Virus record (IMG/VR): IMGVR_UViG_2571042053_000009
Reading direction: 5' to 3' (one strand)
Origin: a virus
Lineage: Duplodnaviria > Heunggongvirae > Uroviricota > Caudoviricetes
Length of the DNA: 7,431 nt
The notes below the pieces were generated by a model. The model made no database searches and had not been told where the DNA came from. It saw nothing but the letters and a program-made list of their open reading frames with translations. Position 1 is the stretch's first letter. Every line of letters starts with the position of its first letter. Below, in pieces: positions 4,673 to 7,398 of this stretch. Both the position numbers and the translations under genes were made by a program.

Positions 4673-4729
4673 GTGAAATTAGCTATCAGGCTTCAATTAC
4701 CGCTGGCATTCGCATCAAAGGAGAGGAGC

Positions 4730-5086
4730 ATGGAAATAAAACCAGAGGATGAGTTAAGCAATATCGTTTTATTTCCGGTAAAAGAGGATGACCCTCGTAA
4801 TCAGGTTAATTTTCTTTATGAGCCATCGGAAAGACCATATTGCCATCACGCCTCTGTTCGGGTTGACGAAAAAGAGCGTCAGGTCCGCTGTAAAATCTGC
4901 GGTGCAGTTGTGGAGCCGTTTGACTGGATGCTCTCTGTGGCGAAAAGAGAAACCAGACTGGCAGATGATGTAAGGCTATTGCGCCAGGAGGAACAGGAAA
5001 GGCGGAAAAATATAGAAAAGTTAATTCAGATTGAGCGTAACGCGAAAGCGCGGATACGCAGGGCGACAAAATCCAGAACTGAATAA
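4730..5086 (+). CDS. hypothetical protein with Cys/His cluster (C-H-H-x13-C-x2-C) and basic coiled-coil tail, 118 aa
   Basis: ATG 4730 preceded by a strong SD (AAGGAGAGGAG, 4718..4728); the ORF-track start at 4673 is a GTG without SD. Possible zinc-ribbon. Confidence 0.65.
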   Translation: MEIKPEDELSNIVLFPVKEDDPRNQVNFLYEPSERPYCHHASVRVDEKERQVRCKICGAVVEPFDWMLSVAKRETRLADDVRLLRQEEQERRKNIEKLIQIERNAKARIRRATKSRTE

Positions 5087-5874: not shown

Positions 5875-6777
5875 ATGACCACTATTACCAAAGAACGTAT
5901 TGAATTGTTCATTAAAAATCCGCTTGAAAACGGGCTTACCCGTGGTGAACAAATGGAACTGGCACGGATTGCGCTGGCATCGCTGGAAGCAGATCCAGTT
6001 AAACGAGTTAACTCAGATCAGATGCGCCGAGTCTGCTTAGAAGCTAATCGCCATTTAGATAAATATGACGCGATGGCGAAAGAGGTAAATAAGTTGCTTG
6101 GACGCATCGCCCCGCCAGCGCCGGTAGTGCCGGAAGAAGCAACTCCGGAAAACGTAGAAATGCTCTCTGGCTATGTTTCCACGTACAAATTAACCGATAG
6201 CGAGCGCGATATTGCTGCCGAAATATGGAACGCCTGCCGCACCGCCATGCTTCAGTCCGGAAACTTTCGGGAAAGCAAGAATTCGTCAACCAATAATTTT
6301 CGGGAAATCCCGGAAGCGTCAACCAGCTCTCCGGTAACTCCGGCTCTTCTGCCTGGTGGTTTCACCATTGAGGAGGCGAAGGAATTACATGAAGACCTGG
6401 TACGCAGCCACATAAGCAAGGCCTTAAGTGGCGAAAAGATGAAAAAGAAAGATCGCGATGCTGATTTGCGCTGGATTCATGGCGTTATAGTTCAGGCAGC
6501 GTGGTTTGTAAAAGCATCACTGGAGCAGAATGCACTATCGGGCAACTATCCGGTAACTCCGGATAGTTGGATAAGCTGTAGTGAGCGAATGCCGGATACC
6601 AAAACAGCCGTTCTTGTTGCCAGGGAGTTTGACAGGAAAGGTGACTGGCGAATGAAATGGGCTACTTACATCCCGGGGCATCCTGACGCTAATGATGGGT
6701 GGATAATTCCTGGTGCGTCGTGGAAACCGTCACACTGGATGCCGCTACCAGAACCGCCGCAGGAGGTGCGCCAATGA
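5875..6777 (+). CDS. phage protein with DUF551-like C-terminal domain, 300 aa
   Basis: Strong RBS AAGGAG. The C-terminal segment (MPDTKTAVLVAREFDRKGDWR...WMPLPEPP) resembles the DUF551 domain common in enterobacterial prophage proteins (recalled, not verified). Confidence 0.75.
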   Translation: MTTITKERIELFIKNPLENGLTRGEQMELARIALASLEADPVKRVNSDQMRRVCLEANRHLDKYDAMAKEVNKLLGRIAPPAPVVPEEATPENVEMLSGYVSTYKLTDSERDIAAEIWNACRTAMLQSGNFRESKNSSTNNFREIPEASTSSPVTPALLPGGFTIEEAKELHEDLVRSHISKALSGEKMKKKDRDADLRWIHGVIVQAAWFVKASLEQNALSGNYPVTPDSWISCSERMPDTKTAVLVAREFDRKGDWRMKWATYIPGHPDANDGWIIPGASWKPSHWMPLPEPPQEVRQ

Positions 6778-6857
6778 TCTGGCCTGAAGCCTTTGCAATT
6801 ACAGGCGTTGCTATAGCTATTGATTTTTTAGTATATGTTATTTGTCGGTGGGGGTAA
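6774..6857 (+). CDS. candidate hydrophobic mini-protein, 27 aa (MIWPEAFAITGVAIAIDFLVYVICRWG)
   Basis: ATG overlaps the stop of the DUF551-like gene (ATGA) with AGGAGG 7 nt upstream. Single predicted transmembrane helix. Below the ORF-track cutoff. Confidence 0.35.
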   Translation: MIWPEAFAITGVAIAIDFLVYVICRWG

Positions 6858-6892
6858 AAACGTTCGCCGGGATTCACACCAAAGGAGGGAAT

Positions 6893-6997
6893 ATGTCGGA
6901 TGATATTTCACTGGCAATGGAAGGTGCTCTGGCTGTTATTGCTGTTGTGGGCGTTTACTGCCTGGTTGTGTTTTTGATGGATCGACTAGGGAACTGA
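6893..6997 (+). CDS. candidate hydrophobic mini-protein, 34 aa (MSDDISLAMEGALAVIAVVGVYCLVVFLMDRLGN)
   Basis: Strong SD AAAGGAGGGA 3-12 nt upstream of ATG 6893. Single predicted transmembrane helix. Below the ORF-track cutoff. Confidence 0.4.
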   Translation: MSDDISLAMEGALAVIAVVGVYCLVVFLMDRLGN

Positions 6998-7005
6998 ATT
7001 CATTA

Positions 7006-7027
7006 CGATATGGGAATTCCCATATCG
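7006..7027. repeat. perfect 22-bp palindrome CGATATGGGAATTCCCATATCG
   Basis: Exact reverse-complement symmetry, 9 bp after the 34-aa ORF stop and upstream of the hok leader. No flanking T-run on either strand, so more likely a protein-binding site than a terminator. Confidence 0.5.
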
Positions 7028-7085
7028 GGTAAAAACGGTTTGCGGTAAAGCGAGAGTTAAGTAGAATTGCTGCGGGTGCTTGAGG

Positions 7086-7121
7086 CTGTCTGCCTCGGGC
7101 ATGCCACCGTAAGGCAGACAG
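7086..7121 (+). promoter_or_regulatory. structured element in the hok leader: 10-bp inverted repeat enclosing the GGCATGCC palindrome
   Basis: CTGTCTGCCT (7086..7095) pairs with AGGCAGACAG (7112..7121). hok-family mRNAs are known to rely on extensive 5' secondary structure; assigning this to a named element is inference. Confidence 0.3.
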
Positions 7122-7242
7122 AGAAAAGCCCCAGTTAACATTACGCGTCCTGCAAGACGCCTAACATTAATCTGAGGCCAATTTCATGCTAGACACATGT
7201 AGGTTAGCCTCTTACGTGCCGAAAGGCAAGGAGAAGCAGGCT

Positions 7243-7398
7243 ATGAAGCAGCAAAAGGCGATGTTAATCGCCCTGATCGTCATCTGTTTAACCGTCATAG
7301 TGACGGCACTGGTAACGAGGAAAGACCTCTGCGAGGTACGAATCCGAACCGGCCAGACGGAGGTCGCTGTCTTCACAGCTTACGAACCTGAGGAGTAA
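7243..7398 (+). CDS. hokD: Hok/Gef-family type I toxin, 51 aa
   Basis: Translation MKQQKAMLIALIVICLTVIVTALVTRKDLCEVRIRTGQTEVAVFTAYEPEE matches my recollection of HokD (RelF): TM helix plus conserved RKxLCE motif. An in-frame upstream ATG at 7186 gives the 70-codon ORF in the track; this may be a mok-like leader frame. Confidence 0.85.
   Translation: MKQQKAMLIALIVICLTVIVTALVTRKDLCEVRIRTGQTEVAVFTAYEPEE

Follow-up and report, generated by a model that had tools for sequence, protein, structure and literature searches.

Do the two very short, hydrophobic open reading frames (ORFs) found directly 5' of a prophage hok/sok toxin-antitoxin locus represent genuine genes, and are they part of that locus? 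The question was raised by IMG/VR virus record IMGVR_UViG_2571042053_000009 (Caudoviricetes), of which a stretch of 7,431 nucleotides (nt), called the window throughout the paper, was analyzed. After a DUF551-domain gene, the gene order on the plus strand is ORF1, ORF2 and hok/sok. ORF1 (6774–6857, ATG at 6774, TAA at 6855–6857) encodes the 27 amino acids (aa) MIWPEAFAITGVAIAIDFLVYVICRWG and belongs to a family of the form MxWPEAF...ICRWG; ORF2 (6893–6997, ATG at 6893, TGA at 6995–6997) encodes the 34 aa MSDDISLAMEGALAVIAVVGVYCLVVFLMDRLGN, here termed subtype 2a. A preliminary description of the window, made from its letters, had reported two hydrophobic mini-ORFs of 27 and 34 aa upstream of hok, each with a Shine-Dalgarno (SD) sequence and a single predicted helix, and both coordinates and sequence agreed with that report. 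We consider it probable that both ORFs are genuine and separate genes, each for a small single-pass protein of the inner membrane, and that they belong to the accessory gene set of lambdoid prophages. The carriers are lambdoid (Rac-, Qin- and Shiga toxin (Stx)-type) prophages of Escherichia coli and its close relatives.

Both reading frames carry the usual signals for translation. The SD sequence of ORF1, AGGAGGT (6761–6767, plus strand), lies within the terminal codons of the DUF551 gene, its core AGGAGG (6761–6766) lying 7 nt 5' of the ATG, and this ATG overlaps the DUF551 stop codon TGA (6775–6777) as ATGA. ORF2 is preceded by the SD sequence AAGGAGGG (6882–6889, plus strand), 3–4 nt 5' of its ATG. 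Grand average of hydropathy values were 1.42 for ORF1 and 1.33 for ORF2, and the best 17-residue Kyte-Doolittle windows, one hydrophobic helix in each case, scored 2.32 and 2.95. The hallmark of a single-pass membrane peptide, one helix of ~17–20 residues, was thus found for both on hydropathy, and for ORF2 also in an AlphaFold2 model, which consisted of a single helix (residues 3–33) with a predicted local distance difference test score of 90.6. When all six frames of the whole window were screened for ORFs with an ATG or GTG start, an SD-like motif, a length of 20–60 aa and a hydrophobic window scoring 2.0 or more, no ORFs other than ORF1, ORF2 and hok were obtained. First-order Markov random sequences, generated from the nucleotide-transition frequencies of the window itself, gave an expectation of 0.02 ± 0.14 such ORFs per window; therefore, the observation is real and no chance feature.

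Relatives of ORF1 were retrieved from IMG/VR with a degenerate DNA pattern covering codons 1–7. This sample, like those of the other pattern scans used below, consists of the first matches listed (at least 120 each) and is not a random draw. Nearly all of the at least 120 matching contigs contained a 27-aa ORF ending in ...ICRWG. The same pattern applied to 596 Gb of bacterial genomes as a negative control yielded chance matches only, with none of the 120 listed being family-like. The 27-codon frame occurred in 52 distinct DNA versions, at least 14 of which encode the identical peptide. For codons 8–27, which are unconstrained by the search pattern, the ratio of nonsynonymous to synonymous polymorphism (pN/pS) was 0.41 in frame versus 0.73 and 1.96 off frame. 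Length variants stayed in frame: 25-aa alleles with 6-nt deletions were observed, one beginning MSRPDAF.... The invariance of WPEAF at the N-terminus is partly imposed by the pattern, and loci retrieved without such selection revealed MSRPDAF and MTWSEAF variants. Among 37 copies from loci collected without reference to ORF1, the gene was intact in 34, while the remaining 3 shared one nonsense allele. Taken as a whole, the comparison gives good support to ORF1 as a real protein-coding small gene of an undescribed family.

The setting of ORF1 combined a constant start with changing neighbors. The ATGA overlap with the DUF551-like gene, pointed out in the preliminary description, had its equivalent in all 124 family copies (overlap with the preceding stop codon in 124/124), and an SD core was located 4–18 nt 5' of the start, inside the preceding gene, again in 124/124. 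At least four unrelated genes occupied this upstream position, namely the DUF551 gene, a zinc-ribbon/coiled-coil protein gene (in 933W and vB_EcoM-606R7), a gene for a protein ending ...GLISVEDVLR, and others. In the start overlap and the internal SD, ORF1 resembles terminal cistrons coupled by termination-reinitiation; it differs from them in that its upstream partner (DUF551, zinc-ribbon or other) is not fixed and that coupling is here deduced from the layout. As the upstream partner is not fixed, ORF1 is no subunit-like partner of any single gene. The 3' side varied as well: hok could follow with its promoter 60 nt away, behind ORF2 or behind a terminator, and other copies were followed by an insertion sequence (IS) element, unrelated genes, or convergent ParDE. 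The last case was seen in E. coli UTAK-23 (locus L406, 701–1471), where a convergent type II toxin-antitoxin pair (ParD/ParE) takes the place of hok/sok behind ORF1; cargo for addiction or defence seems to gather in this slot. The commonest ORF1 allele was present in 1,348 of 5,426 complete E. coli genomes. It is without RefSeq annotation there, and ORF1 was entered as a hypothetical protein in a few GenBank submissions. Minus-strand "hypothetical proteins" are annotated over the ORF1 or ORF2b region (subtype 2b is described below) in phages HannyBb (L407, 2408–2697) and POCJ13 (L002, 2519–2786); these are probably mis-calls resulting from overlooked small plus-strand genes.

The ORF2 family was found to consist of two subtypes, 2a as in the window and 2b, a 29-aa form (MLVLKCALAIAAVMAIYCLAVVLMDRLSD) that begins at a GTG located 5 nt 3' of AGGAGG. 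The DNAs of the two subtypes are 69% identical over the 24 C-terminal codons that they share, and both end at the same aligned position. The SD sequence was kept in every 2a copy, and 2b kept AGGAGG together with the GTG start. Length was nearly constant, with all 11 distinct 2a DNAs measuring 105 nt and 18 of 19 distinct 2b DNAs measuring 90 nt. After removal of pattern-constrained codons, in-frame pN/pS was ~0.19–0.20 for 2a and 0.24 for 2b versus 0.89–3.56 off frame; variable sites at the first, second and third codon positions numbered 4/1/9 (2a) and 5/2/9 (2b). An ORF1-family gene stood 5' of every 2a copy examined. Among 72,556 plasmids, only 3 carried subtype 2a, and sequenced phages yielded none. 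In 1,770 complete E. coli genomes, ATCC 25922 among them, Qin-like prophages carry an unannotated subtype 2b 5' of hokD; it diverges there from the neighboring gene and must therefore have its own promoter. It also occurs in the isolated lambdoid phages Tritos, Evi, mEp460_ev081 and HannyBb. The preliminary description had proposed conservation of the frames, with dN/dS, across homologous prophages as a check, and pN/pS was lowest in frame for ORF1, 2a and 2b. As judged from these natural alleles, both reading frames were shown to be conserved under purifying selection.

For ORF2, translation has been recorded before. The gene is RefSeq hypothetical protein WP_001278450.1 and ECs_5710 in prophage Sp6 of E. 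coli O157:H7 Sakai; the earlier label "unannotated" therefore holds for ORF1 in RefSeq and fails for ORF2. Moreover, ORF2 is identical to the C-terminal 34 residues of XECs145, a small gene newly reported from O157:H7 Sakai as being translated and as encoding a single predicted inner-membrane helix (Hücker et al., 2017; PMC5597208). Using an upstream ATA start, a frame of 54 aa was chosen in 2017, differing from the SD-preceded ATG that gives 34 aa, while the sequence is the same. In lysogeny broth (LB), RNA and footprint abundances of 79.1 and 346.1 reads per kilobase per million mapped reads (RPKM) were given, with a ribosome coverage value (RCV) of 4.35 and a coverage of 0.99 (PMC5597208, S2 Table). 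The corresponding values were 121.3, 150.1, 1.14 and 0.84 in brain heart infusion, and 73.3, 1.1, 0.01 and 0.37 under combined cold and osmotic stress (PMC5597208). Annotated short genes in LB had a mean RCV of 1.55, and the cut-off of the study was 0.25 (PMC5597208). These ribosome profiling values have to be read with the fact in mind that the XECs145 ORF takes in 60 nt 5' of the ORF2 ATG and that the region is multi-copy in many genomes. As that study took only ORFs of at least 30 aa (PMC5597208), the 27-aa ORF1 was not reportable there. Ribosome occupancy, also proposed earlier as a check, was accordingly seen for ORF2 only, which the published footprints cover (PMC5597208). Tested by allele comparison and by these footprints, ORF2 behaved as a real protein-coding small gene, ribosome-occupied and with its frame under apparent purifying selection.

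Neither peptide resembled Hok, the other peptide or a described family. Searches of both against Pfam, NCBIfam, PADLOC and PDB gave no significant match, and PHROGs returned insignificant matches only. Extended ORFs compared with 5.8 billion clustered proteins found close E. coli or enterobacterial relatives only, and a phmmer search of 1.84 billion representative proteins with a fused 74-aa allele (see below) found 12 matches, all of them close relatives. In full-text literature searches with the peptide sequences, no paper discussing them beyond the 2017 supplement (PMC5597208) was obtained.

How closely are the two genes bound to hok? The hok/sok/mok type I toxin-antitoxin locus of the window (7074–7398, plus strand) was recognized by Rfam RF01794 (118 bits), by Pfam HOK_GEF (E = 3e-23) and as RefSeq hokD. 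It comprises the leader with the Sok target (7074–7248; Rfam sok RF01794, 118 bits), mok (7186–7398) and hok itself (7243–7398), to which the Pfam match refers, all on the plus strand. The hok promoter was assigned from the sequence to 7040–7068 (plus strand), with -35 TTGCGG, a 17-nt spacer and -10 TAGAAT; its equivalent in locus L282 reads TTGGCG-17-TAGAAT. Among the 108 ORF2-family copies with enough flanking sequence, 102 stood at a fixed short distance 5' of a hok leader, the gap to the hok promoter being 10–45 nt in ~94% of copies. The other 6, all 2b, were followed by unrelated sequence without hok. For the reverse comparison, the first 80 loci listed for the hok promoter motif alone were collected, of which 77 were evaluable. 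Upstream of the promoter, ORF1 plus ORF2a was found in 11 loci, ORF1 plus ORF2b in 3, ORF2b alone in 12, only a 3' remnant of ORF2b in 8 and ORF1 alone in 9; a third hydrophobic ORF (MEKVDV...) was found in 18, and none of these in 16, including 2 ORF1 variant alleles and 1 ORF2b variant. Intact ORF2 was hence present in ~27 and missing from ~50 of the 77 sampled hok loci. As hok often occurs without ORF1 or ORF2 and ORF1 often without hok, neither does hok need ORF1 or ORF2 nor does ORF1 need hok. Two-way co-occurrence with hok, as for an obligate hok/sok component, was observed neither for ORF2 nor for ORF1. In E. coli K-12, no comparable arrangement was present at hokD or at the examined CPS-53 locus (yfdP-torI region), and upstream small ORFs are not mentioned in a hok diversity preprint or in the hokW-sokW paper.

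Like Hok/Gef type I toxins (PF01848), ORF1 and ORF2 are small, hydrophobic, encoded on the same strand and directly adjacent to hok. Unlike them, they are without homology to the family and without a periplasmic C-terminal domain containing a conserved Cys; no mok-type coupling, antisense Sok or folded leader was recognized for them, and ORF2 is translated in growing cells. Membership in Hok/Gef, which includes the conserved Cys-containing C-terminal domain, was not supported by any Pfam match for the two peptides, while hok itself matched at E = 3e-23. Comparison of ORF1, ORF2 and Hok by hhalign revealed no relation, the probability for a match to Hok being 0.7% (ORF2) and 0.2% (ORF1).

The picture that we favor is that of two independent small membrane protein genes sharing a location. 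ORF1 is the terminal cistron of an early operon, with the layout expected for translational coupling whichever gene precedes it, and would be made in step with the upstream operon. ORF2 would be made independently from its own SD and start codon, also in the lysogen, in agreement with the footprints in uninduced Sakai. Each peptide is predicted to insert as one helix into the inner membrane, probably with an N-out/C-in topology, because the N-termini are acidic or neutral and an Arg follows just after the helix. There, each may bind and modulate a larger membrane protein or the membrane itself, as do most of the bacterial small membrane proteins characterized so far. AcrZ, MgtS, MgrB and PmrR (reviewed in PMC12648545) share with ORF1 and ORF2 a length below 50 aa, one hydrophobic helix, an own SD and the lack of an enzymatic domain. 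They differ in being encoded by the core genome, whereas ORF1 and ORF2 are prophage-borne, and no sequence relation to them was detected (NCBIfam, Pfam). The two peptides would not be parts of the hok/sok mechanism; adjacency to hok would reflect a shared accessory-gene slot at the operon end and, for ORF2, also inheritance as a linked block.

We are aware of several points that weigh against this interpretation. Codon 17 of the window ORF1 (6822–6824) encodes an Asp at mid-helix (AIDFL), a position occupied by Ala in the closest relatives (AIAFL). This Asp allele was seen 9 times in IMG/VR, and is thus no private error. The translation data cover ORF2 alone and consist of footprints; membrane insertion is a prediction. 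The prophages are closely related and recombine, and pairwise pN/pS counts shared changes repeatedly and overstates the number of events; the off-frame pN/pS values served as the main control. Finally, the ~94% adjacency of ORF2 and hok is harder to account for by pure coincidence of location than by a functional link.

This adjacency leads to the proposal that ORF2, and with less likelihood ORF1, is an accessory part of prophage hok/sok loci, either as a membrane peptide damping or enhancing pore formation by Hok, or as an upstream cistron that reads into the hok promoter and alters the hok mRNA. Beyond the constant distance to the hok leader in 102 of 108 copies, the 2b stop codon lies ~10 nt from the hok -35 without a terminator between them, and 2a and 2b have kept their position while diverging to 69% DNA identity. 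Nevertheless, ~50 of the 77 sampled hok loci lack an intact ORF2, 8 of these keeping only the 3' remnant, six 2b copies have no hok 3' of them, and ORF2 is unrelated to Hok in sequence. The hok loci of plasmids and of K-12 function without ORF2. Moreover, just two ORF2 lineages are tied positionally to hok, and linkage by descent can explain, and would be enough for, this adjacency. We regard an accessory role as unlikely. The anti-hok or immunity role suggested in the preliminary description finds, as an obligate one, no support in the same counts, with ORF1 often found without hok, most sampled hok loci without intact ORF2 and 6 of 108 ORF2 copies without hok; a facultative functional link between ORF2 and hok is possible, since the positional linkage is strong. 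That the ORF2 family (2a and 2b) constitutes a dedicated third component of prophage hok/sok loci, tuning Hok killing or hok mRNA output, appears rather improbable to us; if true, these loci would be mechanistically unlike the plasmid R1 paradigm. Toxicity could also reside in the peptides themselves, one or both being independent type I-like small membrane toxins that are normally silent. Size and hydrophobicity resemble those of Ibs, Ldr, TisB and similar toxins, a toxin-antitoxin slot adjoins (hok here, ParDE in L406), and the minus strand has two weak promoter-like matches (6917–6890 and 6858–6830). These two matches, however, compare with 0.8 ± 1.0 expected by chance and are altered in natural alleles; at this chance level, they lend no support to an antisense-promoter reading of ORF2. 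No Rfam RNA family covers 6774–6997, the ORF1 start appears to be coupled to an ordinary operon gene, and ORF2 is among the better-translated small ORFs of growing Sakai (RCV 4.35; PMC5597208). With efficient translation in exponential LB culture, ORF2 is not kept off during growth, which speaks against a potent toxin, and we judge an independent toxin to be very unlikely indeed. The holin-like function considered in the preliminary description found no backing. In the identical prophage, a class II holin and lysozyme are encoded ~6.5 kb downstream after Q, and at 27 and 34 aa, with tails of 3–6 residues, the peptides are far smaller than holins and antiholins, which belong to a lysis cassette, typically comprise 60–150 aa and carry a charged tail.

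Could the frames be conserved for reasons other than their products? DNA or RNA functions, such as recombination boundaries and promoter or leader elements, or simply recent descent might preserve ORFs that are non-functional as proteins. Low diversity, above all of ORF2, the one nonsense allele of ORF1 and the unselected MEKVDV... ORF, by which hydrophobic ORFs can be seen to occur here by chance, are in line with this explanation, which we nevertheless hold to be very unlikely: each of three separate data sets showed the synonymous excess in the proposed frame only, start codons, stop positions and SD motifs were kept, indels were in frame only, and ribosome footprints lie over ORF2. Alternatively, ORF1 and ORF2 might form one 74-aa two-helix gene, split by a frameshift in the G5 run that closes ORF1 (6850–6854, plus strand) or joined by programmed -1 slippage on U-GGG-GGU-AA. 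Rare G6 alleles indeed fuse ORF1 and ORF2 into a 74-aa frame, giving two-helix proteins (P0008, P0009), and in a further allele (P0005) with compensating shifts the frame was restored by a second shift in the T run at ~6824–6829. The linker is without a stop codon in the ORF2 frame, and tRNA-Gly slippage on a G5 run beside a stop codon would be mechanistically possible. The fused forms, however, occurred on 1–2 contigs each versus thousands of contigs with the 34-aa form, and were treated as rare mutations or homopolymer sequencing errors. In addition, ORF1 ends at the same codon in loci without any ORF2, ORF2 has its own strong SD and ATG, 2b is usually without ORF1 upstream, and the G run is broken in some alleles (GAG; GGGGA in 933W-type loci). 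With fused alleles rare, the ORF1 stop constant and the ORF2 SD separate, the split-gene or programmed-frameshift reading was rejected; the probability that we would leave to it is minimal.

The direct repeat GGGTAAAAACG is present twice, at 6852–6862 and at 7027–7037, and the copies bracket the ORF2 module. Loci of the 933W type have TAAAAACGGTTTGCGG and the hok promoter directly 3' of ORF1, with only a single repeat copy present; this single copy joining ORF1 to the hok promoter is consistent with an insertion of the ORF2a module. ORF2 has the appearance of a small module that was placed between ORF1 and the hok promoter and is flanked by GGGTAAAAACG repeats. The ORF1-to-hok spacer was 235 nt in every ORF2a-type locus of the IMG/VR sample. 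The stretch separating ORF2 from the hok promoter contains a perfect 22-nt palindrome (CGATATGGGAA/TTCCCATATCG, 7006–7027). As RNA, it is predicted to form a strong hairpin without a U tract (91-nt fold of -26.1 kcal/mol, z = -3.3), and it recurs just 5' of hok promoters in loci without ORF2 (L044, L104, L227). Possible roles are protein binding, stabilization of an RNA end or marking of a recombination boundary.

Further elements were encountered 5' of hok promoters. In L226, L228, L230, L231 and other loci, only the last seven ORF2b codons (ATGGATCACCTTTCTGATTGA) are left, immediately before the promoter and fused to the end of an unrelated gene; this remnant looks like a recombination scar, with the hok promoter boundary as a mosaic joint. 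The third hydrophobic ORF, of 32 codons (MEKVDVLILIFGYINALFLGVFMAVMCIEYWR; L224 and 17 other loci), is located ~60–160 nt 5' of the hok promoter and was present in 1,569 of the 5,426 complete E. coli genomes. Its variable sites were few and all nonsynonymous, its SD was weak, and no evidence of selection was obtained. Lacking a selection signal, it was not counted as a gene, and on account of this type we rejected the idea that small membrane genes stand 5' of hok as a general rule.

By gene content, the window represents the early region of a Rac/Qin-like lambdoid prophage. It contains genes for a repressor, a cro-like and a YdaT-like protein, O-like and DnaC-like replication proteins, DUF1627, DUF977, a zinc-ribbon protein and DUF551. 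The DUF551-domain gene (5875–6777, plus strand; Pfam PF04448, E = 1.3e-20, and RefSeq annotation of the identical prophage region) is the final long gene of the early (replication/nin-like) operon, and past hok/sok the identical RefSeq prophage continues with DUF968, RusA and Q. At 90% identity or more, the region 6760–7010 had 1,466 matching places, distributed over 673 of the 5,426 complete E. coli genomes. By eye and unaligned, the zinc-ribbon/coiled-coil ORF at 4673–5086 looks like the gene preceding ORF1 in 933W and vB_EcoM-606R7 (L003, 1534–2004; L004, 2109–2504), as if the same modules had been shuffled around ORF1.

Overall, two well-supported entries are added to the catalogue of prophage-encoded small membrane proteins; unless a phenotype comes to light, the two peptides leave present views as they are. 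ORF2 had been on record as a hypothetical gene with evidence of translation. Of greater use is ORF1, a 27-aa family without RefSeq annotation whose commonest allele alone is carried by about a quarter of the complete E. coli genomes. ORF1 also indicates where an operon ends and variable cargo, namely hok/sok, ParDE or IS elements, is inserted. The near-constant position of ORF2 relative to the hok promoter poses a testable question for studies of the type I toxin-antitoxin systems that Stx and other lambdoid prophages carry.

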